Assembly: GCA_964460975.1 (NCBI GenBank)
Contig: CAYWTN010000001.1
Span: forward strand, 61,202-125,201
DNA: 64,000 nucleotides
Source of the DNA: an uncultured Pseudomonadales bacterium
GTDB taxonomy: Bacteria; Patescibacteriota; Microgenomatia; UBA1400; UBA1396
Reading direction: 5' to 3'
In this document: one piece after another, positions 28,055 through 64,000 of the stretch
Numbering within the stretch: position 1 is the first letter of the stretch
Layout of the letters: each line of letters starts with the position of its first letter
Notes under the pieces: model-generated
What the model was told of the DNA's origin: nothing
Databases searched by the model: none
Seen by the model: only the letters and a program-made list of their open reading frames with translations
Translations under genes and position numbers: made by a program

Positions 28055-28067
28055 CAGAAAGGAACGC

Positions 28068-28775
28068 ATGGCTGCCCACCATGCTCAAGCACAGATTCCT
28101 CGACGTCGATTCCTCCCCTCTTTTGGGATCGCCTCGGCTGTGTTTGTTGCAATAGCGGTTGGTCTCCTCCTCTTTTTCCTCTGGTGGCTTCTCTTTGTGA
28201 TTGGCCCCGTGGTGGGTATCGAGGTGAAATACCGGCTCACAACGCTTAGCCGAAACGTTTTCGGCACCACCGAGGTGGCGAGCATCTTTTTCCCAAACCT
28301 CAAAGTAGATCTCCGAGGCTACGAAAGCGAACATCGCGAAAATGGCATCACAATCCCCAAAATTTTTGTTGACGAACCAGTTATTTATAACGTCGATCCC
28401 AATAATGCTGATATCTACAACGCCGCGCTCAAACAAGGCATAGCCCATGCCTCGGGGACATCATTCCCAGACAATGGAAATCTTGGCTACTACTTTGCGC
28501 ACTCCAGCGCGCCAGAGTTCCGCAGCCAATACAACGCAATTTTCTATCTTCTGGGAAAGTTGGAATCTGGCGACAGTATCTTTCTCTGGCATCACGGGAA
28601 ACGCTACGAGTATGAGGTTGCCTGGACACTCGAGACCACACCAGAAAACGTGAGCTTCCTGCATGATACCTACGACAAAGAAACGATCGTTCTGCAGACC
28701 TGCTGGCCAGCGGGTACAACCAGAGGCCGTCTCCTTGTTTTTGCCCAGCGCGTGGAAGACTCCTCAGACAAGTAA
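28068..28775 (+). CDS. Sortase family transpeptidase
   Basis: N-terminal TM helix. Conserved VLQTCWP (TLXTC-type catalytic Cys motif) and a His-containing region. Immediately downstream of, and overlapping, the putative substrate gene. Confidence 0.65.
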   Translation: MAAHHAQAQIPRRRFLPSFGIASAVFVAIAVGLLLFFLWWLLFVIGPVVGIEVKYRLTTLSRNVFGTTEVASIFFPNLKVDLRGYESEHRENGITIPKIFVDEPVIYNVDPNNADIYNAALKQGIAHASGTSFPDNGNLGYYFAHSSAPEFRSQYNAIFYLLGKLESGDSIFLWHHGKRYEYEVAWTLETTPENVSFLHDTYDKETIVLQTCWPAGTTRGRLLVFAQRVEDSSDK

Positions 28776-36178: not shown

Positions 36179-36904
36179 ATGACAGAAAAATACCGACGAG
36201 TACTCCTCAAACTTTCTGGTGAAGCCATGAAGGGCAACAGCGATTCAATCCTCGATCCTGCCTTCTTGCGATATCTCGCTCTTGAGATCAAACAGGCGGT
36301 AGATGACGGCGTGCAAGTGGCGATTGTCCCTGGCGGAGGCAATATCCTACGCGGAGCAACTGCCAGCCGAGAAAGTGGACTCGAGCGAGCCAATGCGGAC
36401 TACATGGGTATGCTGGCCACGGCGATCAACGCGTTAGCACTACAAGGGGCACTAGAAAAAGAAGCGCTGCAAACTCGAGTGATGTCGGCAATCCCTATGG
36501 ATCAGGTGGCAGAACCGTTTATCCGCCGTCGAGCAATCCGCCACTTAGAAAAAGGCCGCGTGGTTATTTTGGCAGCAGGCACCGGACTTCCATTCGTGAC
36601 GACCGATTCAGGCGCCGCCTTGCGTGGCCTTGAGCTCAACTGTGATGCTATCCTCAAGGCAACCCAAGTTGATGGCGTCTACACCGATGATCCCAAAAAA
36701 AACAAGGCCGCCACAAAAATCGATGTGGTTGATTTCCAAGAAGCTCTCACCAATCCCAAGATTCGCGTCATGGACTCGGCGGCGCTGGCTCTGTGCCAAG
36801 AAAATGGCATCGATATCGTAGTCTTTGATCTCCACCAAAAAGGTAACCTTCAAAGAGTGCTCTCTGGTGAAAAGATTGGTACAACGGTGACGAATATCAG
36901 CTAG
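36179..36904 (+). CDS. pyrH: UMP kinase
   Basis: RVLLKLSGEAM and typical amino-acid-kinase fold motifs. Confidence 0.9.
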   Translation: MTEKYRRVLLKLSGEAMKGNSDSILDPAFLRYLALEIKQAVDDGVQVAIVPGGGNILRGATASRESGLERANADYMGMLATAINALALQGALEKEALQTRVMSAIPMDQVAEPFIRRRAIRHLEKGRVVILAAGTGLPFVTTDSGAALRGLELNCDAILKATQVDGVYTDDPKKNKAATKIDVVDFQEALTNPKIRVMDSAALALCQENGIDIVVFDLHQKGNLQRVLSGEKIGTTVTNIS

Positions 36905-36907
36905 CCA

Positions 36908-37903
36908 TTACTGCTGGTACTCCTTGAGAGCACGCTCGTACATTATTACCGCAGCCTCTAGGTCAGCCTTCTTTACTCGCTCCCCAGAGGTGTGAGCATC
37001 GGCAATAGCACCTGGTCCATACACAAAACCCTTCTTGAGAAAGGTGAGTTCTGTGCAGTACTTTACTTGTTCGCCTTTGCCAAAGAAGGCAAGAGACTTG
37101 GGAACAACGGATGCCACGGGGGGCAGACTCTGCGTTGCTTCAACAACTCCCTGACTTCCTACCAGCGACTGCATTTGCTCGGCATAGTTATTGTTATCAC
37201 CAGGAGCAATACGGAAACTCAAAAGCGCCTCCGCGCGATCTGGAATGATGTTGTCGGCTCTACCGCCAGACAAAGACACGATACTCATAAGAGTTCCTGG
37301 GTGAAGTTTGAGTTTCTTTACCGAATCAGAAAGGAGCAGTACCAGTTTGTCGATCGCGTTTTCACCACGATCTGGCTCACTGCTATGCGCTGCCTTCCCG
37401 GTACATACCAGAGAAAAAACCAAGATACCAAAGTGGGCCACAACTGGCTTGAGCTCTGTTGGTTCACCCACAATAAGGAATGCATCCAGATCTTCCATGA
37501 AGGATTGTGCCTGCTTCGCCCCTGAAAAATCCACTTCCTCCCCCACGGTAAACAGCAAACCGAAATCGCTCACTCCCTGAGACAACGCATTCTGTGCCGC
37601 TACCATCATGCTGGCGATGGAGCCTTTGGTATCACATGACCCTCGACCGTAAATGAACGCCTCATCCTCACGCGCTTCCAAATGTGGCGGAACCACATCC
37701 ATATGCGCCTGCAGAATAATTTTAGGCTGACCAACTTTGGCAAAAACGTTGATCCGTTCTCCAGCCACTGGCATCCGCATCACCTCAAAGCCAGCCTTTT
37801 CTAAATACTGTGCCAAAAAATTACCCACAGCCGCCTCATCCCCTGTGATAGAGGGAATATCGATGAGCTTCTTAAGCAGAGCGCTCACTTTCGTTTTTTC
37901 CAT
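36908..37903 (-). CDS. M20 family peptidase (ArgE/DapE-like deacylase)
   Basis: LQAHMDVVP, GRGSCDTKGS and GEEVDFSGA motifs. Confidence 0.8.
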   Translation of the reverse strand: MEKTKVSALLKKLIDIPSITGDEAAVGNFLAQYLEKAGFEVMRMPVAGERINVFAKVGQPKIILQAHMDVVPPHLEAREDEAFIYGRGSCDTKGSIASMMVAAQNALSQGVSDFGLLFTVGEEVDFSGAKQAQSFMEDLDAFLIVGEPTELKPVVAHFGILVFSLVCTGKAAHSSEPDRGENAIDKLVLLLSDSVKKLKLHPGTLMSIVSLSGGRADNIIPDRAEALLSFRIAPGDNNNYAEQMQSLVGSQGVVEATQSLPPVASVVPKSLAFFGKGEQVKYCTELTFLKKGFVYGPGAIADAHTSGERVKKADLEAAVIMYERALKEYQQ

Positions 37904-37944
37904 ATTTCCTTTCTTTTTAAAACACTCAGTTTACGCATAAAAAA

Positions 37945-37960
37945 ACCCCTGACCCGGGGT
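37945..37960 (-). terminator. Short hairpin preceded by A7 on the plus strand (T7 after it on the minus strand), inside a larger 8-bp inverted repeat
   Basis: ACCCC-TGACCC-GGGGT with AAAAAAA upstream. The outer arms are AACACTCA and TGAGTGTT. Confidence 0.3.
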
Positions 37961-38139
37961 TGAAGTGAGTGTTCTGTTCTGCTTTTTCTACAACATCTCT
38001 CCAACCCCGACTGTATGTGAGGTATGACGGACATGCCAGTATGCACGACTGCAAAACATTGCAGTGATTGTAACACATTGACAAAAAGATGGGATCGCCA
38101 TAGAATTCCTTCCAATCCGTTATGAGTAGGAGTCGCGTC

Positions 38140-38340
38140 CTGCCATCTTGATTGCTCAAGAACGGTATCTCGCAAAATCGAGATCGGCTAGAAACCGTTA
38201 TCTTTCTCAACCTGTGTCACTCGCCAGAGAAACGGAGCAGGTTACCAAGCATGTGCTGGGAACAGCAGATGGAAAAAGGGTGGTACCGCGTCTTTCAAGC
38301 GCCCCTTTATCTACAAAAACGTAGATAAAGGGGCGCTTTT
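38140..38340 (+). promoter_or_regulatory. T-box riboswitch leader (Stem I-like helices, GNRA-capped stem III, antiterminator with UGGUACC bulge, terminator)
   Basis: T-box sequence AGGGTGGTACCGCG at 38277-38290. Antiterminator: A1 is AGGG/CCCT, the 7-nt bulge is TGGTACC, and A2 is GCG/CGC. The A1 3' strand overlaps the 5' strand of the terminator, so the two folds are mutually exclusive. CCGTTA (F-box-like) occurs at 38195-38200. Confidence 0.6.
38299..38340 (+). terminator. Rho-independent terminator (16-bp stem + T-tract), the terminator arm of the T-box
   Basis: GCGCCCCTTTATCTAC-AAAAAC-GTAGATAAAGGGGCGC-TTTT. Confidence 0.7.
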
Positions 38341-38367
38341 CTGTTCCTTTTCTACCAGAAAGGAAAC

Positions 38368-38883
38368 ATGATGAGCGAATCATCATACGAAATCATCTTT
38401 GCAAAGGAGGACGATACTGCCTTGCTCCTCATGGCACAAGCTCTCATTGGCCGCTACGCCGAACAAGGCCTTATGCTCGCTGTTACGCTCAAGCAACTCG
38501 AGTCTATTGCCGCACAAGGCCTACTCGCTTTGGCGCTTAGCCATGATCGAAACACGATTGGTGTGGCGGGCATTACTTTTGAACATCCGGATGGGAAGAA
38601 AGAATTTGGTGGCTGGGCAGTAGATCCAGCCTGGAAGCATTCTGGCGTTGGTAAACAACTCCTCCAAGCCGTTATTGGTAGCACCAGTGGCACGGTTATT
38701 GCCTTTGGCAACCACAATTCTGGCCCAATTTTTACCAAACTGGGAGCAACCATTTTGGATCAAAAATCGATGCACCCCAGTGCCTTCGACCCGTGTCGAA
38801 ACTGCAAATGCCAAGGAAAAGAAAAACTCCCCGAGGGCACTTTGTGTGTGGACAGTATTTATGATCTTACCAATCTCAAATGA
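38368..38883 (+). CDS. GNAT family N-acetyltransferase (size and fold compatible with a short ArgA-like amino-acid acetyltransferase)
   Basis: GGWAVDPAWKHSGVGKQLLQAVI is a GNAT motif A. 171 aa. Good SD sequence AAAGGAAA. Confidence 0.5.
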   Translation: MMSESSYEIIFAKEDDTALLLMAQALIGRYAEQGLMLAVTLKQLESIAAQGLLALALSHDRNTIGVAGITFEHPDGKKEFGGWAVDPAWKHSGVGKQLLQAVIGSTSGTVIAFGNHNSGPIFTKLGATILDQKSMHPSAFDPCRNCKCQGKEKLPEGTLCVDSIYDLTNLK

Positions 38884-38912
38884 AAGTCTAGGCTGGAAAT
38901 ACGCTATGAATC

Positions 38913-40010
38913 CTAGGTTACAGACATTGTATCTTTTTGAGATCGCACCACAAGCTCTTCAACGATATTGCGAATGAGTTGCTTTGACATATCTCGATTA
39001 ACTTTTTTGTTATCGTTCCAGTCTATTCCTGGACCAATGTTTCCTTCAAGAAAATAGATATTGCCGGCATTACTCACAACAAAGTCTAAAGCAAAAAGCA
39101 TGTTTTTCTTATCAATTTTGGCGACAATCTTTTTGGCAATCGAGAGAACTTGTGAAGGAATATCTTCTGAAGTGACATAGCACAACTCTCCTCCTTGATG
39201 TTCGTTGCAGCGGAAATCGCCACTTTTTGCCATACGAAAGTAACATTGCAACAAGGCATCATGCTGAAAGATGAGGCGAATATCGGTTGCCGTTTGCCTA
39301 CCTTGATAGGAAAAACCAGAATCGAAAGTGAGGAAAGGCTGAAAGACAAAAGCTATCTCGGGGAACTGCCGAAGAGTATTTTGCACTTCCTCTACCAGAG
39401 TGGCGCGCTGAATCTTGTAAACAAAATTCCCACCAGCGCCAAATCGATCTTTCATAATAATATCTTGTGAAAAATCCGAGCGATACTTGTGCTGAGAAAG
39501 CAGTTGATCGAGCTCTCGCAGAGCCAAAAGAATGTCCGCTTTTTTGTCTGAAGGCACGCTCACCGTTGGGACGGCATACTCTGGCAACTTTGTGAAGGTT
39601 TGGAGCTTATCAAAAAAAGTGAAAAAAAGTTCTGGGTCGTTGAAAGGAACAACTTTTTTATCGGAAAAAAGGAGCTCTCTTTCTAATGATCTTCTTTCTG
39701 ATGTTGGCGAGATTTTATCAAAAACCTGATGCGCTACTGCGGGCTGCAATTCTTTATTCCAACGCCCATCGGAGTGTGTCCAGTAGCTTTGGCAAAGACC
39801 TGGGCCAATAATGTCTGATGATGTCGTAAATCCAGCTTTGAGATTTCTTTTTTGGCAAGTTTCCAAAAAATAAGCATACGAACGGTTATACACACCTTGA
39901 GGAGAAGTGAGGAGAAAAGGAAACTGAGAAACGGAGTCGGAAGCAGAGGAACTGATGGCCAAGCTGGCAGAATATACTACCAGTACATCGAGATTCACTA
40001 CTTTTTTCAT
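38913..40010 (-). CDS. ATP-grasp fold-like protein of unknown specificity
   Basis: IIMKDRFGAGGNFVYKI and LFALDFVVSNAGNIYFLEGNIGPG resemble ATP-grasp B/C-domain motifs. Confidence 0.45.
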   Translation of the reverse strand: MKKVVNLDVLVVYSASLAISSSASDSVSQFPFLLTSPQGVYNRSYAYFLETCQKRNLKAGFTTSSDIIGPGLCQSYWTHSDGRWNKELQPAVAHQVFDKISPTSERRSLERELLFSDKKVVPFNDPELFFTFFDKLQTFTKLPEYAVPTVSVPSDKKADILLALRELDQLLSQHKYRSDFSQDIIMKDRFGAGGNFVYKIQRATLVEEVQNTLRQFPEIAFVFQPFLTFDSGFSYQGRQTATDIRLIFQHDALLQCYFRMAKSGDFRCNEHQGGELCYVTSEDIPSQVLSIAKKIVAKIDKKNMLFALDFVVSNAGNIYFLEGNIGPGIDWNDNKKVNRDMSKQLIRNIVEELVVRSQKDTMSVT

Positions 40011-41445: not shown

Positions 41446-41535
41446 TGGCGGAGAGGGCGAGATTCGAACTCGCGGTGCCATTGCTGACACGGAGGTTTAG
41501 TAAACCTCTGCACTCGGCCACTATGCGACCTCTCC
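41446..41535 (-). tRNA. tRNA-Ser, type II with long variable arm and encoded CCA; anticodon loop UUACUAA gives apparent anticodon ACU
   Basis: GGAGAGG-TC-GCA-TAGTGGCCGAG-TGC-A-GAGGT-TTACTAA-ACCTC-CGTGTCAGCAATGGCACC-GCGAG-TTCGAAT-CTCGC-CCTCTCC-G-CCA. Confidence 0.8.
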
Positions 41536-54385: not shown

Positions 54386-54595
54386 GTGTGTCAAGCACCC
54401 CTTGGCCTATTTAGGCAAGTAGATTGGACTGTCAGAACCTTTTAACTGTTGCGGAAGCGATGGGCAGAATTATTTTAAGCTCTAAGTGAATATTCTGCAT
54501 CTTCGGGCTTTCAGCCCTCGAGATTCTTGCTGCGCAGGATATCTTCACACAAACCAGTTATAAAAAAGTTCCAGCGATGCTGGATTTTTTACAAG

Positions 54596-54682
54596 CGGAG
54601 AGGGCGAGATTCGAACTCGCGGTGAGCTTGCACCCACAGTAGTTTTCAAGACTACCGCACTAGACCACTATGCGACCTCTCC
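54596..54682 (-). tRNA. tRNA-Ser (TGA), type II, no encoded CCA
   Basis: GGAGAGG-TC-GCA-TAGTGGTCTAG-TGC-G-GTAGT-CTTGAAA-ACTAC-TGTGGGTGCAAGCTCACC-GCGAG-TTCGAAT-CTCGC-CCTCTCC-G. The acceptor and T-arm are identical to the tRNA-Ser at 41446. Confidence 0.85.
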
Positions 54683-54744
54683 AAGTAACCATATTGTATC
54701 AGGGTGTTAGCTTTTTGTTTGTTTTCTTTGAAAGAATAGCTTGT

Positions 54745-55368
54745 ATGAAAAGACTCCTCTCGCTCCTTGCTCCAGCGAACTGTTATATTTGCCAGAGAAT
54801 AGGGAGTTGGCTCTGTTCGGGCTGCCTCGAAAACCTCACTTGGTATCAAGGAGCAGCGCTTTCGCAACTTGTTGTGCATCCGGGCATTGAACGTATTTTG
54901 AGTGTCGTGGAATACCGAGATAGTGTAGAAACCCTCATGACCTTGGTAAAAAAAGGCAACTATTTCTCTTTGGTTGAACTTTGGTCGCAGCTCACCTATA
55001 TTGCCTATCCTAGACTTCTTTCCAAAAATGATGTTCTTTTGCCGGTTCCCACCACTTGGCAAAGAGAGTGGGAACGTGGATTTTCTCCCACGCTCGTTTA
55101 TGCCAAGCACCTCGCCAAACATTTTGGCGCCAAGATTCATACCACCACGCTTATTCGCACCAAGGATGATGGACACCAAGCACAAAAATCACGATCACAA
55201 AGACAAGAGACAGAAAATATGTATGCGGTGTATAACTCGCCGCCAGAAGGAAGGCTTTGGATTATTGATGATGTGATTACCACTGGAGCAACGGTGAGTG
55301 CTTGTGCGCGCGCGCTGTCCGGCCTAGGCCGGACAGCGCGCGTCCTCACCTTCGCGGCAACCGTATAA
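54745..55368 (+). CDS. ComF family protein (phosphoribosyltransferase domain with N-terminal double Cys pairs)
   Basis: CYICQRIGSWLCSGC zinc-finger-like region and a PRTase motif, LWIIDDVITTGATV. Confidence 0.75.
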   Translation: MKRLLSLLAPANCYICQRIGSWLCSGCLENLTWYQGAALSQLVVHPGIERILSVVEYRDSVETLMTLVKKGNYFSLVELWSQLTYIAYPRLLSKNDVLLPVPTTWQREWERGFSPTLVYAKHLAKHFGAKIHTTTLIRTKDDGHQAQKSRSQRQETENMYAVYNSPPEGRLWIIDDVITTGATVSACARALSGLGRTARVLTFAATV

Positions 55369-55896: not shown

Positions 55897-57480
55897 ATGA
55901 CACAAAAAGCCACGCCTTGGCAAAAACTCCAGACTTGGGCAAACAAACACGAGTTCCTTTTTGCTCTCTGGACGTTACTTATTTTCCTGCTACTCCCCGA
56001 TCTCGTGGAACCGTACTGGTACGGCGACGAAGCCATCTACCTTACCATTGGAACCGGACTGCGCAACGGGCTCAAGCTTTACGCCGAGATCATCGATCAT
56101 AAAACCCCCCTCATCTACTATCTGGCAGCGGTTCCCAATCAGTTGAGCTTCCGATTTCTGCTCATTTTTTGGATGATCCTCAGCACTGGATTTTTCTACC
56201 ATCTTGCCAAGAGATTGCTCCCAGCTTTTTGGGCTTTTGCGGCCAGCATCGCTTTCGTTCTCCTTACCAGTTTGCCCACCTTTGAAGGGCACATCCCCAA
56301 CGGAGAACTCTTTGTCATGGGTTTTATCCTGGCAAGCCTCTGGCTCCTTGATAAGTCACCCTGGCTGCGCTGGCTCACTCAAGAAAAAACCCCTCAATGG
56401 AAACTTGCACGCAAAGATTTGTACTGGATAGCCGCTGCTGGTGGAGTTGCCGGACTGGGAATCCTCACCAAAGTGCCAGCCGTCCTGGACGTTGGAGTCA
56501 TTGGGGCGCTCATGCTCTTTGCCGCTGTTCGTCATTATCACAAAAAATCGTGGCGTCCTCTGGGCGGCGCACTCATTATGAGTTGGTTGATCTTTGGTGG
56601 CGCCGCCCTCCTCACCATCCTCGCTTCCCTTTTTTACTACTGGCTCCGTGGCTCTCTCGGCGCTTACATCGACTTTGGGCTCCTTTATAATTTTCATTAC
56701 ACCAGCAACTGGACCCTCCCTTTTTCCGACACAGCGCTCTTGGCTCTCTTCACACTTCCAGGAAAAGCCGTTGTCTTGGCTGTCTCCTTCTTTGCCACAC
56801 TCGCCCTCAGTTGGTACAAGAAAAAAGAGACTCCTATTCTCTGGGCACTGTTCTGGGTCTGGGCAAGTACGTTTGCCGCTTTACTTTCCAACAGACCCTA
56901 TCCACATTACTTCCAGCAAGTCGTACCCGCGTTTTCCTTCGTGGTCGTTGCCCTTTTTATGAAAAATCGAGCTTTTACAACACGTTTTTCCATAGGCATA
57001 AGCATTATTCTTCTCTACATTACGCTTACACTTCTGCACTTTCGTCCCTATGCCGTTTGGGAGTATTACCAAAAATACTTCCAGCTCGTGACTGGGCAAC
57101 AATCAATCGAAAACTACCACAACAGTTTTAACGGCCTCGTGAGCCAAAATAATCAGATCGTACCAATCATTCAAGAAGCAACCCCAAAATCTGATCGCAT
57201 TTTTATCTGGGGAACCAATCCCATGCTCTATGCTCAAGCACAACGCAGCCCAGCCACTCGATTCACTGTTGCTTTCCATATTCATGATCTCAAGGTATAT
57301 GAGCAAACAATGCAGGAGGTGACGCAACATGAGCCGCCATTTATCGTGGTTATGAAAAAGGAATCCCCACTGGCTGGTTTGAGCAGTTACCTTAGCGAAC
57401 ACTATATTTGGAGCTACGAAACTGCAGATATGACTCTCTACCGACGCCGCTCGCTCAGCGCCACACAGTTGGTACAATAG
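55897..57480 (+). CDS. GT-C membrane glycosyltransferase (GT39/GT83, PMT/ArnT-like)
   Basis: 527 aa, polytopic. The N-terminal YWYGDEAIYLTIGTGLRNGLKLY...DHKTPLIYYL loop is typical of the ArnT/PMT family. Confidence 0.7.
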   Translation: MTQKATPWQKLQTWANKHEFLFALWTLLIFLLLPDLVEPYWYGDEAIYLTIGTGLRNGLKLYAEIIDHKTPLIYYLAAVPNQLSFRFLLIFWMILSTGFFYHLAKRLLPAFWAFAASIAFVLLTSLPTFEGHIPNGELFVMGFILASLWLLDKSPWLRWLTQEKTPQWKLARKDLYWIAAAGGVAGLGILTKVPAVLDVGVIGALMLFAAVRHYHKKSWRPLGGALIMSWLIFGGAALLTILASLFYYWLRGSLGAYIDFGLLYNFHYTSNWTLPFSDTALLALFTLPGKAVVLAVSFFATLALSWYKKKETPILWALFWVWASTFAALLSNRPYPHYFQQVVPAFSFVVVALFMKNRAFTTRFSIGISIILLYITLTLLHFRPYAVWEYYQKYFQLVTGQQSIENYHNSFNGLVSQNNQIVPIIQEATPKSDRIFIWGTNPMLYAQAQRSPATRFTVAFHIHDLKVYEQTMQEVTQHEPPFIVVMKKESPLAGLSSYLSEHYIWSYETADMTLYRRRSLSATQLVQ

Positions 57481-57484
57481 GGCT

Positions 57485-57832
57485 ATGCGCATTGCTTCGC
57501 CGTTTCATCCACATCATGCCAGGTTGCTCTGGGTTCTCACCGCGCTCTGGGGAGCTGTTGGTGTTTTTTCTCTTTCCCTGTGGTTTTTTGGACCGCCATT
57601 CCTCCCACTTTGGCTCTCACTGGTTGAACCCTCAGAACAACTCGCTCCTAAGATTGCCATTTGGGTATTTCCGGCTATCACCACGCCCCTCTACTTTCTC
57701 ACCCTCTGGTTTTCTCGGAAAAACTCACTCGAACACGAAGAATATCTGGCAACGCTTTCCCTCTGGTCCGGGATTATCCTGCTGTCGCTTTTCCTCTTTG
57801 CCATCATTCGCATCATGAAGGTCATTCTATGA
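57485..57832 (+). CDS. Small hypothetical membrane protein (3 TM helices)
   Basis: 115 aa, hydrophobic. Sits between two glycosyltransferase genes. Confidence 0.3.
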   Translation: MRIASPFHPHHARLLWVLTALWGAVGVFSLSLWFFGPPFLPLWLSLVEPSEQLAPKIAIWVFPAITTPLYFLTLWFSRKNSLEHEEYLATLSLWSGIILLSLFLFAIIRIMKVIL

Positions 57833-58920
57833 GTAGCAATGCCTTTTTGGCGTTTTTGCTCTCCTTTGCTACCGCTGCGGCTAGCGCACCGATCATCATT
57901 GCGCTCTATAAACGCTTTGGCTGGGTAGACGACCCTCAATCCAACCCCCAACCAAAAACGGTCCACACCAAGCCTGTTCCTCGGGGCGGCGGCCTCGTGG
58001 CCGCCGCCGGAATCCTCGCTTCCTTTATTGCATTCATACCCTTTACGCAACCAATGATTGGCGTTCTGGCTGGCGCAACGATTCTCCTCATAAGTGGGAC
58101 GCTGGACGATCGTTACGACATCAATCCTTATATTCGCTATGGACTCAATATTTTGGCAGCGTTGTGTGTAATCGGATCTGGCATAGATATTGATTACGTC
58201 ACCAACCCTTTTGGCAGTGGAGTGATTCATCTAGACACCATTGGACCAAGCCTCAAAATTGGCTCACAGGAATACTCCCTGTTTGCCGACGGCCTCGCTC
58301 TCCTCTGGATTGTCTGGAACATGAACGCCGTAAACTGGTCTAAGGGCGTGGACGGACAGATGCCTGGTTTTGTGGCTATCGCCGCTTTTTTCATCGCACT
58401 CCTCAGTCTGCGCTTCCAGGGAGATCAAACTCAGGGAGTAGTCACGCTGCTTTCCTTAGCGGTGAGTGGCGCTTTTGCTGGCCTTCTTCTCTGGAATGCC
58501 TATCCGCAAAAAATGATGCCTGGCTATGCCGGCGGATCACTAGCCGGATTTTTCCTTTCGGTTTTGGCCATTCTCTCTGGCGCCAAAATTGCCACAGCGC
58601 TGCTGCTTTTGGCTCTTCCCACCGTGGATGGTATCTATACCGTTGCTCGCCGTTTGGCCGCTGGCCGATCACCTTTCTGGGGTGACCGAGGGCACCTGCA
58701 CCACACCATGCTCGATGCTGGTTGGGGCAAGCGACGAATCGCTTTTTTCTACTGGATCACGACTTTTTTCTTTGGTGTTGCTGCCCTTCAGCTGGACAGC
58801 CGATCCAAAGCGTATGCTATGATGGCCTCAGGAATTCTATTTATCTTACTGGTCTTATGGCTCAAACGCTCTACAACATTCTTAAAGCTGCTCGGCCTCG
58901 ACAGTGGCTCAAAAACGTAG
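57829..58920 (+). CDS. Polyprenyl-phosphate sugar-1-phosphate transferase (GT4 MraY/WecA family)
   Basis: NMNAVNWSKGVDGQMPG (the NAVN..DG.DG motif) and about 10 TM helices. The start is taken at MSSNAF. Confidence 0.8.
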   Translation: MSSNAFLAFLLSFATAAASAPIIIALYKRFGWVDDPQSNPQPKTVHTKPVPRGGGLVAAAGILASFIAFIPFTQPMIGVLAGATILLISGTLDDRYDINPYIRYGLNILAALCVIGSGIDIDYVTNPFGSGVIHLDTIGPSLKIGSQEYSLFADGLALLWIVWNMNAVNWSKGVDGQMPGFVAIAAFFIALLSLRFQGDQTQGVVTLLSLAVSGAFAGLLLWNAYPQKMMPGYAGGSLAGFFLSVLAILSGAKIATALLLLALPTVDGIYTVARRLAAGRSPFWGDRGHLHHTMLDAGWGKRRIAFFYWITTFFFGVAALQLDSRSKAYAMMASGILFILLVLWLKRSTTFLKLLGLDSGSKT

Positions 58921-59807
58921 CGGTTTTTGCCTCTCTCGTTTTCTCAGGCTTCTTTTTCCAAGATTTTCCTCTCTATTTTGTCCGAGTGACACTCACGTTC
59001 TTTGTCTTTTGTGTTTTGTCTTCTTCTGTATATCTTATAAATGACATCGTTGACCGCGAGTCCGATCGGCAACACCCTTTCAAAAAGAAGCGACCCATTG
59101 CTTCGGGAGCACTCTCGGTCTGGGTGGCCGCCTTCGCTGCTTCTCTCGGAATTGTGTTTTCTCTAGCTGCTGGTTTTTCTCTCTCGCCATTTTTGTTTGT
59201 TCTTCTCCTCAGTTATCTGGGACTTCAAGTCTCATACTCATTGGCACTCAAACACATCTCCATTCTTGACGTCTTAAGCATTGCAGCAGGTTTTATTATC
59301 CGCGTCTATGCTGGCGCCGTGGTGGTAAACCTCCACATGAGTGTTTGGTTTTTGCTCACGGTTATCTCGGCTTCACTGTTCTTAGCCGTAGGGAAACGCC
59401 AAAGCGAACGAACGCTCCTCAGTAAAGAGGAAGCAACGGGACGCGGCTTTTCTACTCGCCGCTCACTCGAAAAATACTCGACGAGGCTTTTGGATATTTA
59501 CACAGGAATGTTCGCCAACGCCACTTGGCTTACGTATGCGCTCTTTGCCTTCCAACAAGAAACACAGATCCCCGCAGCGCCACTGCCAACTCTTTTTGCC
59601 TTTATCCCCAGGGCATTTTCGGCACAAAAATGGCTCATGCTCACTGTCCCCATCGTTATTTATGGAGTTATGCGGTATCTCCAACTTGTGTACGAAAGCA
59701 ACCAAGGGGAATCACCAGAGCGCGTTCTGCTTCAGGATAAACCACTCCTCATTACCGCTGGCGTTTTTGGCGTGATGGTGCTCTTTATTATTTACGTTCT
59801 GGGCTAA
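58857..59807 (+). CDS. UbiA-family prenyl-phosphate phosphoribosyltransferase (decaprenyl-phosphate 5-phosphoribosyltransferase-like)
   Basis: YLINDIVDRESDRQHPFKKKRPIASGAL closely parallels the DPPR synthase (Rv3806c-type) motif. About 9 TM helices. Confidence 0.75.
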   Translation: MAQTLYNILKAARPRQWLKNVAVFASLVFSGFFFQDFPLYFVRVTLTFFVFCVLSSSVYLINDIVDRESDRQHPFKKKRPIASGALSVWVAAFAASLGIVFSLAAGFSLSPFLFVLLLSYLGLQVSYSLALKHISILDVLSIAAGFIIRVYAGAVVVNLHMSVWFLLTVISASLFLAVGKRQSERTLLSKEEATGRGFSTRRSLEKYSTRLLDIYTGMFANATWLTYALFAFQQETQIPAAPLPTLFAFIPRAFSAQKWLMLTVPIVIYGVMRYLQLVYESNQGESPERVLLQDKPLLITAGVFGVMVLFIIYVLG

Positions 59808-61006
59808 ACGCGTGAACGATTCTTCCACCAGGTAATGACCCCAGCGACCGCGCCCGTAGCCGTAATGGCCTTTTGCAAAGCAAGGATTTCTGGGCTGTAC
59901 TCAAGCCTTGCGTCCAACCATGGCAAGTACCGTAGCAAGGAAGACACACTCAACCCAAGAAGGATGGCGCGCACGAGTGAAGAACGAACAAGTGGCAAAA
60001 AACAGAGTGCCCATACCAGGTACCAAGGATGGAACTGTTGGGAACGAGCGGTGAGGAGTGGCGCGAGCAGAGCGAGCGCCGCCAAATCTGGCCAGTAGCG
60101 CCTCCCAAAAGCCACAAGATTATCGAGAAACGGCCACCGCTGCCAAATCACGTTGAGCGGTAAAAAAAGTGGCACAAGAGGGAGCAAAACGACCGTCACA
60201 AATTTTTGATAAATTGATGCTCCCAGAAGCCCACCAGCAACAAACAGTGACAAAATTGATGACCAGCGCACCGTAATGATCGGAAGAAGAAGGGCCAGCG
60301 CTACAAGCGCTGGCCACATCATCCAAACATCATTGTGACCATTGAGCGCTACTTCCAGCAGCACGAGTGGATTCCAGGCAAAAAGCCAAAAACGATTTGT
60401 TGTTCCCCAGACCTTTTTCTCCAGCCAGGCAAGGGAGAGAACGGTAGCGATGAGCCCAAGCACCATCCAGAGTTTCATGACCAGATAAGCTAGGGCAAAT
60501 TTCCCCAGCCCAAGTGAGTACGGCACGAGCGAAAGCAGCGTCCAACCCCAACCGTAGGGAGCGGGCGTATGCGTGTTGTGCATAAAACGTGTCCAGGGAT
60601 CCTGGGCAAAATCGAGTGCTGTTTGCACATGCGGATTGGAGCCATACTCGAGCACCATCTTGGCATTAAAAAGGTAGTTGAAAATATCATGGGAAAGGGC
60701 ATTATGTCCCAAGACAAGGATTCCTAAGACGCTTCCCCACGCTATCCAGCGCGCAAAGGGAGAAAACTCGCCTATTTTCATCATCCAAGAGCGGTAGACC
60801 GAAAACCAACTCAGGACAAGGAGCAGGAAAATAGGCGCTCCAGACCAAGGATTACCCTGCCAGGCGTGCATCGTCTCCTGAAACCGCACATACCAGGGAT
60901 GAGCCACGAGTAAAAAGTTTGGGTCAGCAAAAATGTATGACCATAATGAAGTCAAAACGGCCAAAGCAATGGTGACGAACCAGAGCTGAGCGGCACGCAC
61001 GGTCAT
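59804..61006 (-). CDS. Polytopic membrane protein, GT-C-like (DUF2029/GT87-like glycosyltransferase)
   Basis: About 11 TM helices. Conserved acidic and aromatic loop near the N-terminus. No cytosolic domain. Confidence 0.5.
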   Translation of the reverse strand: MTVRAAQLWFVTIALAVLTSLWSYIFADPNFLLVAHPWYVRFQETMHAWQGNPWSGAPIFLLLVLSWFSVYRSWMMKIGEFSPFARWIAWGSVLGILVLGHNALSHDIFNYLFNAKMVLEYGSNPHVQTALDFAQDPWTRFMHNTHTPAPYGWGWTLLSLVPYSLGLGKFALAYLVMKLWMVLGLIATVLSLAWLEKKVWGTTNRFWLFAWNPLVLLEVALNGHNDVWMMWPALVALALLLPIITVRWSSILSLFVAGGLLGASIYQKFVTVVLLPLVPLFLPLNVIWQRWPFLDNLVAFGRRYWPDLAALALLAPLLTARSQQFHPWYLVWALCFLPLVRSSLVRAILLGLSVSSLLRYLPWLDARLEYSPEILALQKAITATGAVAGVITWWKNRSRV

Positions 61007-61007
61007 A

Positions 61008-61763
61008 CTAGTTTTTGTATTTTTGAAAAACGTCGGTGAGTCGAATTTTGACGATATCCGCAAACATGCGCACGGAGTCCTTGAGAGGGTTCACCCGCTC
61101 TGTCTCATTGTGCTCCCAAAGAACAGGGACTTCGGCAATCTGGAACTTGTAACGCCTCGCCAAGAGCAAAAGCTCAACATCAAAGGCACCAGTGAAGGCA
61201 TCTGTTCGCTCCTTACCCTGGTAAACAACGAGTTTAGGGAAAAGTGACTCTGTAGCCGCCGCCGTGAACATCTTGAAACCACACTGAGTATCTTGAATAC
61301 CGGGGACCGCAATCGCTTGCACGAGCATGTTAAACACCAGTCCCATGACATGTCTGTGGAGAGGCTCTTTTTCCCGACGAGCACCTTCCAGCGCCCGAGA
61401 ACCGATCACCACATCATACCCATCATCAATAAAAGGCAAGAATTTTTCAAACTCAGAAAGCGGTGTTGACTGATCAAAGTCGGTAAAGAGGCGATACTTC
61501 CCTTTTGCCGCCAGCATACCAGAACTCACGGTGGGTCCTTTGCCCTTGTGAGGATTTTCTACCACACGAACATTAGAATGCTTCTTAGAAAAAGCGTGAA
61601 GCAGCGCTACCGTTTTGTCGGAAGAACCATCGTCGGTGAGAACAACTTCCCAGGCGTAGCTCTGCTTTTGCAGATACTCAATAACGGCATCCAAAACCCC
61701 ACGAGAAAAATTTTTCTCCTCGTTGTAGGAAGGAATGACTACAGAAAGATATGGCTCAGACAT
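61008..61763 (-). CDS. GT2 polyprenyl-phosphate sugar synthase (Dpm1/ArnC/GtrB-like)
   Basis: LSVVIPSYNEE, VVLTDDGSSDKT and a DXD-containing GT2 core. Confidence 0.85.
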   Translation of the reverse strand: MSEPYLSVVIPSYNEEKNFSRGVLDAVIEYLQKQSYAWEVVLTDDGSSDKTVALLHAFSKKHSNVRVVENPHKGKGPTVSSGMLAAKGKYRLFTDFDQSTPLSEFEKFLPFIDDGYDVVIGSRALEGARREKEPLHRHVMGLVFNMLVQAIAVPGIQDTQCGFKMFTAAATESLFPKLVVYQGKERTDAFTGAFDVELLLLARRYKFQIAEVPVLWEHNETERVNPLKDSVRMFADIVKIRLTDVFQKYKN

Positions 61764-61767
61764 ATTC

Positions 61768-63393
61768 CTACTCTATCACGTCTGAAGGCGCGATGCTTTC
61801 TTCACTTTTTCTCTTCACAATATACACTCTCGGTCCGTTCTCTATCTCGAAAGTACGGTACTCGCCTTTGGGAAAAACTACAATCTCATACACAGGGGAG
61901 CCGAGCACTTCAGCCGGTTCTCGAGGAGTTTCGGCAATGATAACCAAATAATCAGAATCAGAAAATGCTTCTTGAGCAATAGGAGGGCGATCTGACGTTT
62001 GCAAAAAGTATCGGTAGTTGAGGCCTCGATAATCACGGATCTCAGAGAGTAAGGCCAAATTATAGGTTCCTTCATCTGGAAGTTCTTCGAGAATACGCTC
62101 AGCGGTGCCTCGCATATCGGCAGCAGTCCAACCAAGTGGCTGCAAATAGAGCATCTGGACTGGTTGGGCAGCCAGCCAGAAAATATAACCAGTAAACACA
62201 GCCGCGGTAATCTTTCCAGGCCAACCACCAAATTTTGCCAAAGTATAAACAGCCAGGCCATGAAGTAAGTAGGCCACTGGGAAAAAGTAGGTAATATAGT
62301 GGAAGAAAACGGTGGATTTATAAAATGACAAACCAAAAACAGAAGTCACTGCCGTAATAATGAGCAAAAAGTATCCCATTGGACGCGGGCTTTTTCGGTA
62401 GAAAAAGCCCGCCCAGCCAATAACACCAGCAAGAGCGACAAGCAAAAATGTATTGAGCTGGCGGTAATAACCGAACCACTCTCGGCCAAGAATTTCGAAA
62501 AATACCTGGAGGGCGCGACCGTGCTGTTCACGGAAAATATCCCAAACCTGCTGACCAGGGCTGATAGCAGTTATCCCTCGCTCCTTAGAGAAAAAATCGG
62601 CAAAGCCGCCGGCAATGAGGTTATCGAATCGCCAGTTAAAGAGAACCAGAGGAGTAAAAGAAAGGAGGATCACTGCAGCAGAGGCCAAGCTCGAAAAAAG
62701 AAGTTCTTTTTGTTCGTTTCTCCCTCTTTGGAATCTTCGGTAAACATCAGCTGCCCAGAAAATACCGGCTGGAGCGGCAATAAGAAGCGCCACATAATGC
62801 AGCTGGATAATCACCGCAAACCAAAAAGCGACCCACACCCACCAACGAGCTGATCCATACCAAGCACGCCAAATACCATACAGAATGGCCAAAGTCACAA
62901 TAGGCGCTGGATTGGGGTTCCAGGAGAATCGAGTGTATTCGTTGACATAGGTGCCTACGGCAAAAAAGAGTGTGGCAAAAAAAGCTGGCCAACCACCGAT
63001 AAGACGTTTGCCCACCCAGTACAGGAGTGGGATCGTGGCGAGGCCAAGAAACGCTACGGCATAGGCTGGGCCAACCGGTTCATTGCCAAAAAGGAAAATG
63101 AAGGGAGCCATAAAATAGTAGTACAGAGGGCCAAGATACATCTTGCCCACACTGGTTGATGGTCCAACAAGTGCCACGTCAAAATGCAGAATTCCCCAAG
63201 CAATAAGAGCGTCTCTCCCTTGATCAGCGAGAAACTGCATCGTGGTGGGCAAGTTGAGGAAACGATACACCGAGCCAAAAACCGTGGCCAATGCCACTCC
63301 AAAAACCTGAGTGCGCTCAGAAGATGACGATTGCTCCCACCAGGAACAGTAACGCTGCCAAACCTGAGCCAGCATGCCTATTTCTTTCTCCAA
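61768..63393 (-). CDS. GT-C membrane glycosyltransferase (GT39/GT83 ArnT/PMT-like)
   Basis: 541 aa, polytopic. The YLGPLYYYFMAPFIFLFGNEPVGPAYAVAFLG region is typical of the family. Confidence 0.7.
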   Translation of the reverse strand: MEKEIGMLAQVWQRYCSWWEQSSSSERTQVFGVALATVFGSVYRFLNLPTTMQFLADQGRDALIAWGILHFDVALVGPSTSVGKMYLGPLYYYFMAPFIFLFGNEPVGPAYAVAFLGLATIPLLYWVGKRLIGGWPAFFATLFFAVGTYVNEYTRFSWNPNPAPIVTLAILYGIWRAWYGSARWWVWVAFWFAVIIQLHYVALLIAAPAGIFWAADVYRRFQRGRNEQKELLFSSLASAAVILLSFTPLVLFNWRFDNLIAGGFADFFSKERGITAISPGQQVWDIFREQHGRALQVFFEILGREWFGYYRQLNTFLLVALAGVIGWAGFFYRKSPRPMGYFLLIITAVTSVFGLSFYKSTVFFHYITYFFPVAYLLHGLAVYTLAKFGGWPGKITAAVFTGYIFWLAAQPVQMLYLQPLGWTAADMRGTAERILEELPDEGTYNLALLSEIRDYRGLNYRYFLQTSDRPPIAQEAFSDSDYLVIIAETPREPAEVLGSPVYEIVVFPKGEYRTFEIENGPRVYIVKRKSEESIAPSDVIE

Positions 63394-64000
63394 ATGACTT
63401 TACTGTACACAGTGAAGTTCCAAACCATACCGATAAGCACACCAGCTGCTAAGTAAAAATCATCACTCATAACACGGAGTCCCAAAATCTGCAGTACCGT
63501 AAATACTCCGAGCAGTGCTAAGCCTACCTGCATCGTGAAGTACTGAATGATAATCGACCCCAAAGACCCAACATTGAACTGCAAAAACTTATTGATATGT
63601 GCCAAAGCACCAGCAATCTGGCGATCCTTGAACGTCCAGAAGTTGTTGAGAAGATAGTTAGAGATAATGGCTACTTCAGCTCCCAACACAACAGCCAGTC
63701 CGCGATCAGAAAAAGCGTGGCCAAGATAAGGAATCTCAGTGAAACCAGGAATGGCTTCAAAAAGACGACTCAACTCTAAGGCCGTAAAGACACGAAAAGC
63801 GATGAGGTTCACGATAAAGCCAATACCGCCAACCACCACAAAGCGGAACAAACGGTGTCGCAGGATTTCTTGGATACGGACAGAAAGCAAGTAACGCAGC
63901 GTATTTATAATGTATTCTGTCCCCAACTTGGACTCGCCAATCGTACGGTCAACAAAGTGGAAGGGAACTTCTTTGACCACAAAGCCCGCACGCAACGCCT
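63378..64000 (-). CDS. GT2 glycosyltransferase with C-terminal GtrA-like domain (5' end runs off the window)
   Basis: Only the C-terminus is visible: the end of the GT2 domain (VVKEVPFHFVDRTIGESKLG), then a 4-TM GtrA-like region ending NFWTFK. Confidence 0.7.
   Translation of the reverse strand, partial: ALRAGFVVKEVPFHFVDRTIGESKLGTEYIINTLRYLLSVRIQEILRHRLFRFVVVGGIGFIVNLIAFRVFTALELSRLFEAIPGFTEIPYLGHAFSDRGLAVVLGAEVAIISNYLLNNFWTFKDRQIAGALAHINKFLQFNVGSLGSIIIQYFTMQVGLALLGVFTVLQILGLRVMSDDFYLAAGVLIGMVWNFTVYSKVIWRKK

Follow-up and report, generated by a model that had tools for sequence, protein, structure and literature searches.

In the three-component system of Citrobacter youngae O1/O2, ORF15, a PPPRS with a fused HAD phosphatase, makes undecaprenyl-phosphate-ribofuranose (Und-P-Ribf) from phosphoribosyl pyrophosphate (PRPP), the MATE protein ORF14 is the proposed flippase, and the GT-C enzyme ORF12, founding member of GT136, puts ribofuranose (Ribf) on the O-antigen, while the short-chain dehydrogenase/reductase (SDR) ORF13 converts the donor into its xylofuranose (Xylf) counterpart (PMC11127046, Kelly et al. 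2024). According to the same work, DprE1/E2 homologues accompany candidate arabinofuranose (Araf) systems, and Und-P-Ribf/Xylf systems with GT-C enzymes have been characterised in Gram-negative bacteria (PMC11127046). Here we report on a 64,000-nucleotide (nt) stretch of contig CAYWTN010000001.1 (hereafter the window), in which the region from 55897 to the window end holds eight tightly packed genes (g1, gS and g2 to g7). In our reading, to which we give a probability of roughly 0.6, they form two convergent membrane-glycosylation operons, of which operon A would be a PRPP-fed extracytoplasmic pentofuranose system and operon B an add-on. A preliminary description of this DNA had regarded such chemistry as best known from Corynebacteriales, which, given the Gram-negative systems just cited, no longer holds.

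The PPPRS-type enzyme and its conserved operon

By family, g3 is assigned to the PPPRS/DPPR-synthase type, because it passes the NCBIfam model for 'decaprenyl-phosphate phosphoribosyltransferase' (NF008978; 225.5 bits, where 207 is required), because its sole strong match in the PDB is Mycobacterium tuberculosis Rv3806c (E = 3.7e-44, 154.7 bits), and because the PRPP and Mg2+ ligands of the latter are conserved. The model NF008977 gives 227.2 bits, just below its cutoff of 234, and NF008976 gives 180.7 bits, below the cutoff of 474. The UbiA domain is recognised by Pfam (PF01040, E = 1.2e-20), and the motif NDIVDRESDRQHPFKKKRPIASG, quoted in the preliminary description, lies within g3. The protein has a single domain; the HAD-fused model NF006088 is matched over profile positions 191-477 only.

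A Pfam UbiA match does not by itself discriminate between a phosphoribosyltransferase and an ordinary UbiA prenyltransferase for quinones, haem O or archaeal-type lipids, in which case the adjacent glycosyltransferases would be unrelated to g3. This alternative is scarcely tenable, however. The models for quinone (MenA, UbiA), haem O (CyoE), chlorophyll-synthase and GGGP enzymes reach at most 47 bits on g3, against about 226 for the DPPR models, so that a grouping with the MenA/UbiA/CyoE clades fails, and the next UbiA structure, ApUbiA, scores 18.4 bits as opposed to 154.7 for Rv3806c. In addition, the sites that bind phosphoribose lack conservation within the UbiA superfamily as a whole (PMC10994848), yet the variable residues concerned (K28, Y70, Q135 and Y157/F in Rv3806c numbering) are present in g3, and the synteny of g3 with a GT-C gene is strict. 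The earlier view of the UbiA protein as a DPPR synthase and not a quinone or haem prenyltransferase is borne out by these data.

In Rv3806c, PRPP, its 5-phosphate and Mg2+ are bound by R22, K28, Y70, N73, D77, K87, R90, Q135, Y138, K143 and Y157 (PMC10994848), and further residue roles for the PPPRS site have been described (PMC11127046). We aligned the window protein with 80 orthologues (n=81). R22, K28, Y70, N73, D74, D77, D81, K87, R90, Y138 and K143 are kept in 81/81 sequences, with D74 and D81 forming part of the invariant NDxxDxxxD motif. Q135 is kept in 65/81, the window protein included, and the position of Y157 is taken by Phe in g3, a variant that also occurs in some mycobacteria. 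Judged from this active site, it is highly probable that g3 makes polyprenyl-P-ribose-5-P from PRPP. The NCBI/Logan gene call for g3 (P0001, 273 aa) starts 45 codons too late in comparison with the orthologues (316-319 aa). The truncation drops R15 and K21, which correspond to R22 and K28, an Arg and a Lys which in Rv3806c bind PRPP and polyprenyl phosphate. The annotation 'decaprenyl-phosphate phosphoribosyltransferase' is already attached to individual genes in public records.

Operon A is a conserved module in related Patescibacteria genomes. The comparison set comprised 80 loci from GTDB species representatives, each with +/-10 kb, which were analysed by tblastn and clustering of open reading frames (ORFs); together with the window they amount to 1.39 Mb, and two further loci, L082 and L083, were examined additionally. 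The g2 and g3 genes are adjacent in 80/80 loci, and g1 lies upstream of the pair in about 74/80, so that a PPPRS and a GT-C enzyme are encoded together in one operon in most of the set. Between g1 and g2, a positional orthologue of gS (~120 aa) is found in 73/80. Wherever the genes of operon A occur, they are colinear and on the same strand, with starts and ends that overlap or nearly abut; g2 invariably runs into the start of g3, in the window by 70 nt. The genes flanking operon A, in contrast, vary between genomes.

In 43-54 more distant loci, operon A has other neighbours than in the window. Thus, 54 loci carry a gene for a 501-aa membrane GT2 about 1.5 kb upstream of the g1 orthologue (e.g., L049:5342-6844 and L083:4987-6492), and in most Microgenomates loci this gene precedes the GT-C gene. 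The protein has a weak Glyco_trans_2_3 match, and inspection by eye shows TYKEP, EDAD and QLKRW motifs similar to those in processive GT2 synthases; it could make an acceptor polymer. In 43 loci, a bona fide bacterial PMT homologue (family c7, PMT plus PMT_4TMC; e.g., L044:2426-3808) stands directly 3' of the UbiA gene. Both genes are absent from the window, where the convergent block g4-g7 occupies the place of the PMT.

Gene coordinates (Table 1) were taken from the ORF listing and translation of the window. Operon A reads g1 (GT-C), gS (three-helix membrane protein), g2 (PNPT-like) and g3 (UbiA); operon B reads g7 (GT2-GtrA), g6 (PMT_2 GT-C), g5 (GT2) and g4 (MptA/B-family GT-C). The two are convergent, their 3' ends sharing 4 nt at 59804-59807, and do not form the single co-directional block of the preliminary description. 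The seven genes listed there were all found at the coordinates given, each belonging to the family named for it by Pfam, NCBIfam or orthologue evidence. They are eight, however, as gS had been overlooked, and instead of the four GT-C enzymes announced there are three (g1, g4 and g6). The N-terminal ~200 aa of g7 lie past the window end. The window proteins of g1, gS and g4 have zero Pfam or NCBIfam matches. The genes of the region are real rather than chance ORFs, because they have colinear orthologues at 40-84% identity in related genomes and because AlphaFold models of g1 and g4 reach a pLDDT (predicted local distance difference test) of 94. The window shares its gene order with the closest relative, L082, between 55412 and 63977, at protein identities of 62-84% (73% for g6, 76% for g7).

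Table 1. Genes of the two operons, in window coordinates
Gene	Position	Strand	Length	Product and remarks
g1	55897-57480	+	527 aa	GT-C glycosyltransferase; first gene of operon A
gS	57485-57832	+	115 aa	Small membrane protein; three inferred transmembrane segments
g2	57826-58920	+	364 aa	Glycos_transf_4; member of the PNPT (MraY/WecA) superfamily
g3	58851-59807	+	318 aa	UbiA fold; PPPRS/DPPR synthase type
g4	59804-61006	-	400 aa	GT-C, MptA/MptB family; ORF could reach 61063; last gene of operon B
g5	61008-61763	-	251 aa	Soluble-type GT2
g6	61768-63393	-	541 aa	PMT_2 GT-C; start uncertain (TTG 63393 or ATG 63375)
g7	63378 to beyond 64000	-		C-terminal ~206 aa of a GT2 + GtrA/DPMS-TM fusion

A promoter scan returned promoter-like sites at chance level (11 found vs 10.1 expected), and the terminator-like sites in it had no correspondence to operon ends; the scan was not used. 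Between 56000 and 64000, the AT skew is about -0.15 to -0.18 over the plus-strand genes and flips sharply to +0.18 to +0.29 over the minus-strand genes, likely a consequence of the T-rich coding strands of very hydrophobic membrane proteins and not a replication feature.

Partners of the PPPRS-type enzyme in operon A

All three GT-C enzymes have the multi-helix membrane fold of this class and conserved acidic residues near the N-terminus, which in g1 and g4 follow the first helix and in g6 would likewise belong to the first extracytoplasmic loop. From its sequence and family profile, g1 is classed as a GT-C enzyme that is distantly PMT (GT39)-like. In its family, an invariant EPYWYGDE motif directly follows the first helix predicted, and about residues 430-527 make up a C-terminal alpha/beta domain. 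Pfam PMT is matched by 10/42 family members; in the window protein neither PMT nor PMT_4TMC rises above threshold. The profile of the g1 family aligns with that of the bona fide bacterial PMT family from the related loci at a probability of 88% (E = 2.8e-6, 327 columns), and in this alignment the invariant D44-E45 of g1 falls on the DE motif of PMT. No specific similarity to AftA, AftB, AftD or Emb was found for g1, and neither g1 nor g4 nor g6 is specifically close to mycobacterial arabinofuranosyltransferases; sequence and profile searches of the PDB with these three gave no meaningful match. A kinship between g1 and g6 was also considered and rejected, as hhalign gave a probability of 0.6%, i.e., no relationship.

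The PNPT-like g2 was recognised by Pfam as Glycos_transf_4 (PF00953, E = 8.9e-22). It scores 90.7 bits against the WecA model TIGR02380, whose cutoff is 326, and 38.6 bits against MraY, far below the cutoff. In the PDB it matches MraY (5jnq, E = 1.7e-12) in a nearly end-to-end alignment, and its family profile matches both MraY and DPAGT1. Several hallmarks of the superfamily are retained, namely the DD motif (D94 and D95, invariant), D176 as the second Asp of DGxDG, and HxHH (H290/H292/H293). Two are replaced, the first Asp of DGxDG by Lys (K173, in 'NWSKGVDG') and the Asp aligned to AaMraY D265 (BsMraY D231) by Tyr (Y234, in 'PGYAGGS'), each in at least 90% of the family. In AaMraY, D265 is a catalytic residue at the Mg2+ site, and D174 and D231 are among the essential residues of BsMraY (PMC5039524). 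Therefore, although the Glycos_transf_4 family and the DD motif agree with the WecA/MraY-like primer of the preliminary description, a priming role for g2 is uncertain because two canonical catalytic aspartates are replaced. A literature search on the WecA VFMGD motif returned nothing relevant, and a PNPT subfamily with such a rewired active site appears to be undescribed.

The gS gene between g1 and g2 encodes a protein whose three transmembrane segments were deduced from the hydrophobic blocks of its alignment (A6). It has a conserved loop of the QPxIPLxYSL type and a near-invariant C-terminal Arg, is 74% identical in L082, and its exact sequence is a called gene in an NCBI record, a 147,850-bp contig that also encodes proteins 100% identical to g1, g3, g4 and g5. 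No Pfam match was found for it. A GtrA/Rv3789-like flippase was considered and dropped, since gS has three hydrophobic segments instead of four and lacks a Pfam match. It is possibly an accessory subunit.

Operon B, the host and other features of the window

Operon B combines GT2 and GT-C enzymes. The g5 protein matches Glycos_transf_2 (PF00535, E = 1.1e-24), and its best PDB matches are the Pyrococcus furiosus DPMS (5mlz, 1.5e-13), ArnC (3e-11) and GtrB (1e-8). The part of g7 inside the window matches GtrA_DPMS_TM (PF04138, E = 7.6e-14); full-length orthologues of 407-429 aa contain both Glycos_transf_2 and GtrA_DPMS_TM, so by its orthologues g7 is a GT2 with a four-helix membrane domain. These matches agree with the DPMS/ArnC type proposed earlier for the two GT2 enzymes. 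No NCBIfam equivalog cutoff is reached by either g5 or g7, and the scores of g5 are far below. The PMT_2 match of g6 is barely above threshold (27.1 bits vs a cutoff of 26.1), whereas its orthologues match PMT_2 in 9/9 cases (best E = 1.5e-10); D57 and D61, near the N-terminus, are invariant. The g4 protein is compact and all-helical and belongs to the MptA/MptB family, which is related to PimE/GT87, ALG3 and PIG-M. Its homologues carry a precomputed Pfam assignment to MptA_B_family (PF26314), and a relative in L083 also matches GT87, weakly; the 'DUF2029/GT87-like' label given to g4 in the preliminary description was thus close. A near-invariant D28 (P0121 numbering) sits in a DPN motif following the first helix.

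Among the relatives recovered, the nine closest (L002-L009 and L082) are the only ones with the block g4-g7 beside the UbiA gene, and only g1, gS, g2 and g3 are broadly conserved, which speaks against the seven genes being one pathway, as they had been presented. Because operon A occurs without operon B in about 70/80 loci, operon B behaves as a swappable accessory, and on balance we regard it as a lineage-specific block of this kind. In the closest relatives (L002-L009; L082:15743-18984), operon B extends upstream of g7 by genes for a nucleotide-sugar dehydrogenase and two SDRs, one of which is Gmd (GDP-mannose 4,6-dehydratase; TIGR01472, 453 bits for a cutoff of 415). In this genome, these genes are probably located immediately beyond 64000. 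A role for these SDRs as lipid-pentose epimerases was considered and judged less likely, one of them being a bona fide Gmd.

A non-mycobacterial host, as supposed in the preliminary description, is supported. Going by the record titles of its homologues, it is a Microgenomates-type Patescibacterium: for g3, g4 and g1, the top-ranking homologues come from metagenome-assembled genomes (MAGs) of uncultured Patescibacteria, those with names being Woesebacteria, Pacebacteria and Microgenomates. Many of the MAG records in the set L002-L081 are titled 'uncultured Pseudomonadales bacterium' (one 'Vitreimonas sp.'), while gene content and homologues point to Patescibacteria, and these labels look wrong. 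Patescibacteria are described in the literature as lacking lipopolysaccharide (LPS), and because of this it is unlikely that the GT-C genes are generic ArnT lipid A modifiers of an LPS-bearing organism.

On the other large ORFs of the window, Pfam recognised housekeeping and unrelated genes, among them those for FtsEX, RF2, DnaE, GatAB, ClpB, ribonucleotide reductase, a sortase and a Mur ligase. At 26546-28775, a gene for a PKD-domain protein is followed by the sortase gene, a pair consistent with a Gram-positive-type wall with anchored surface proteins, which would be possible substrates of glycosylation. The region 36179-40010 encodes an amino-acid kinase, an M20 peptidase, a GNAT protein and a RimK-type ATP-grasp enzyme, much like the LysW-type sets for lysine/arginine biosynthesis; in a reduced genome of the candidate phyla radiation (CPR) this would be notable. 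ARAGORN predicts a tRNA-Ser with anticodon ACT (A34) at 41446-41535 (-), with the loop TTACTAA, a long variable arm and an encoded CCA; A34 tRNAs other than tRNA-Arg(ACG) are unusual in bacteria. Upstream of g1 there are, besides unrelated genes, a tRNA-Ser gene (54595-54682) and an ORF at 54670-55368 (+), the latter upstream of g1 in six close loci as well. This ORF has two CxxC pairs and a PRPP-binding loop ('IIDDVITTGAT') and by eye resembles a ComFC-like type I phosphoribosyltransferase; Pfam gave no match for it at E <= 0.001. Because the ORF and the tRNA-Ser gene overlap at the 5' end of the former, translation probably begins at the Met of codon 26.

Proposed pathway, alternatives and known systems

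By analogy with the PRPP/Mg2+ site of Rv3806c, g3 would transfer ribose-5-phosphate from PRPP to polyprenyl phosphate at the cytoplasmic face of the membrane. The 5-phosphate would be removed by a phosphatase, for which no candidate was found in the cluster, and the donor, which probably stays ribo-configured as polyprenyl-P-Ribf, would be flipped across the membrane by a further component. The PMT-like g1 would then move the pentofuranose onto an acceptor outside the membrane, either Ser/Thr of surface proteins, as its resemblance to PMT suggests, or a wall glycopolymer possibly primed by g2; we favour neither of the two. Coupled to g3 by gene overlap, g2 may prime a lipid-linked acceptor or otherwise handle the lipid-linked ribose. 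Operon B would make polyprenyl-P-hexose or -deoxyhexose donors that are used outside the membrane, like Ppm1 with MptA/B or the Gtr/Arn enzymes. That a GT-C enzyme uses a lipid-linked pentofuranose as its donor, as put forward in the preliminary description, is still the best reading, given the synteny of the UbiA and GT-C genes in ~74/80 loci and the precedent of C. youngae (PMC11127046). We are inclined to see in g1 the GT-C enzyme that consumes this pentofuranose outside the membrane.

The preliminary description went further and had every step encoded in the cluster, which is not the case. We recognised no 5-phosphate phosphatase, DprE1-type epimerase or flippase acting on the ribose donor, either in the window or in any conserved neighbourhood. 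Specifically, a tblastn search with DprE1 (a query confirmed identical to PDB entries) gave no match at E <= 10 in the window and the 80 loci, nor in L082/L083. The corresponding search with DprE2 gave no match in the window and the 80 loci either, and carries little weight, the query being an unverified sequence. Pfam scans of the larger window ORFs contained no FAD (flavin adenine dinucleotide) oxidase, SDR, PAP2 or HAD phosphatase, PRPP synthetase or MATE transporter. There is no DPPR 5-phosphatase, of the PAP2 Rv3807c type or as a fused HAD domain, in the cluster or its conserved neighbours, and no MATE flippase among the cluster genes or scanned conserved neighbours (families c8, c10 and c12 being outside the scan). 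These negatives mean absence from the neighbourhood, not from the genome.

Which sugar is transferred depends on the fate of the ribose donor. Provided that the pathway is active, the scales tip towards Ribf over Araf or Xylf, because no DprE1-type epimerase was found nearby. Of the ribose- or arabinose-like donor suggested earlier, the pentofuranose part stands, and arabinan-like chemistry is less likely, DprE1 not having been found in 1.39 Mb. In a D-Araf pathway of the mycobacterial type, the g3 product would be dephosphorylated and then epimerised by DprE1/DprE2-like or non-orthologous enzymes encoded elsewhere, and the GT-C enzymes would assemble a polymer resembling arabinan or, like TfpW acting on Pseudomonas pilin, arabinosylate proteins. 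Such a pathway would agree with the Rv3806c type of g3, with the entry step that known non-actinobacterial Araf systems share (PMC11127046), and with the MptA/B- and PMT-family GT-Cs, which lend the locus an actinobacterial character; moreover, the search covered a small part of each genome. We nevertheless consider it unlikely, since DprE1 is missing from all the loci searched and FAD oxidases and SDRs from the larger window ORFs, since candidate Araf-adding systems do contain DprE1/E2 homologues (Kelly et al., PMC11127046), and since g1 does not specifically resemble the mycobacterial transferases. A different question is whether the eight genes form one pathway to a single glycan, in which, for example, g2 would prime, g5/g7 with g4/g6 would build a mannan-like backbone on the outer side of the membrane, and g3 with g1 would add pentofuranose side chains. 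Mycobacterial lipoarabinomannan, in which an MptA/B mannan is joined to DPA-derived arabinan, offers a parallel, and the operons lie tail to tail with their 4-nt overlap and occur together in the nine closest relatives recovered. Against this, in ~70/80 loci operon A stands without operon B and is flanked by the Glyco_trans_2_3-like GT2 and a true PMT, and nothing ties both operons to one acceptor; a joint glycan is doubtful for these reasons. A bolder version of the ribofuranose pathway, a distinct four-component machine of Microgenomates-type Patescibacteria in which g2, translationally coupled to the PPPRS and deprived of two catalytic aspartates, is no longer a HexNAc-1-P (N-acetylhexosamine-1-phosphate) transferase and together with gS handles, dephosphorylates or flips polyprenyl-P-ribose(-5-P), while g1 O-ribofuranosylates surface proteins or builds a ribofuranose envelope polymer as a core feature of the lineage, is quite improbable.

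Having set out these alternatives, we would note what weighs against our own proposal of a PRPP-fed pentofuranose system with an add-on operon. Donor, acceptor and lipid are all predicted from sequence. No gene for the phosphatase or flippase step of the ribose donor was found in the window or conserved neighbourhoods, and g2 is without two canonical PNPT catalytic residues, which puts its role in doubt. Since the search covered 64 kb and +/-10 kb in the relatives, DprE1/E2-like or ORF13-like epimerases could be encoded elsewhere, and an SDR in the operon B of the relatives could in principle epimerise a lipid-linked pentose. There is also the doubtful case, weighed above, that both operons cooperate on a single glycan.

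Very little is known of the envelope chemistry of CPR/Patescibacteria, which probably underlies their attachment to host cells. As these genomes are strongly reduced, whatever module many of them have kept, operon A included, is likely to matter for the cell surface, and operon A would spend PRPP on a lipid-linked pentose. If true, the range of PRPP-derived extracytoplasmic pentofuranosylation, so far Actinobacteria and Gram-negative O-antigens and pilins, would come to include the CPR, a compact PPPRS/GT-C pair would be at hand for glycoengineering, and a PNPT subfamily would be defined by its rewired active site. Our literature searches for a connection between CPR/Patescibacteria and DPPR synthase, UbiA, DprE1, GT-C or arabinofuranose found nothing relevant, and Patescibacteria are not mentioned by Kelly et al. 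(PMC11127046). The annotations of individual genes and the general mechanism are already public, whereas the architecture of the Patescibacterial module appears undescribed.

Known systems resemble the locus in different parts. Operon B contains the same enzyme types as Ppm1/DPMS with MptA/MptB/PimE and Pmt of Actinobacteria, GtrA/B/C and ArnC/ArnT, and g7 shares the GtrA/DPMS membrane domain with the P. furiosus DPMS; it differs in that no equivalog threshold is reached, and from the literature one would not expect this group to have lipid A, the acceptor of ArnT. Within the PNPT superfamily (MraY, WecA/TagO and DPAGT1), g2 shares Glycos_transf_4 and the DD, NxxN...DG and HxHH motifs, and departs from it by the Tyr at the D265 position, the Lys for the first Asp of DGxDG and its sub-cutoff WecA and MraY scores. 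Mycobacterial arabinogalactan is likewise primed by a PNPT, WecA. With the mycobacterial decaprenyl-phospho-arabinose (DPA) pathway (Rv3806c DPPRS, Rv3807c phosphatase, DprE1/DprE2, Rv3789 and AftA-D/EmbA-C), the locus has in common the homology of g3 to Rv3806c (E = 3.7e-44), a PRPP site that matches except for Y157 to Phe, and the position of g3 beside a GT-C gene; in the H37Rv gene order, Rv3806c adjoins AftB. The D-Araf O-glycosylation of group IV pilin in Pseudomonas aeruginosa (PsPA7_6246-6249 and TfpW) likewise pairs a stand-alone PPPRS homologue with a protein-glycosylating GT-C, and g1 is similar to PMT, a family of protein O-glycosyltransferases; that system, however, has DprE1/E2 homologues, and no link to a pilin gene is seen at our locus.

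The C. youngae systems provide the nearest parallel to the ribofuranose pathway that we propose. In both, a UbiA-fold PPPRS that keeps the NDxxDxxxD and GKRxxE motifs is clustered with a GT-C enzyme whose C-terminus carries an additional extracytoplasmic domain, and Ribf can, or in operon A would, be used directly, without an epimerase. Unlike ORF15, g3 is without a fused HAD phosphatase, and no MATE flippase was recognised in the surroundings of operon A. Instead, operon A adds the PNPT-like g2 and gS, which are undescribed for those systems. Furthermore, its host belongs to a group described in the literature as monoderm and without LPS, and, in contrast to a serotype-variable O-antigen accessory, operon A is conserved across a CPR clade.

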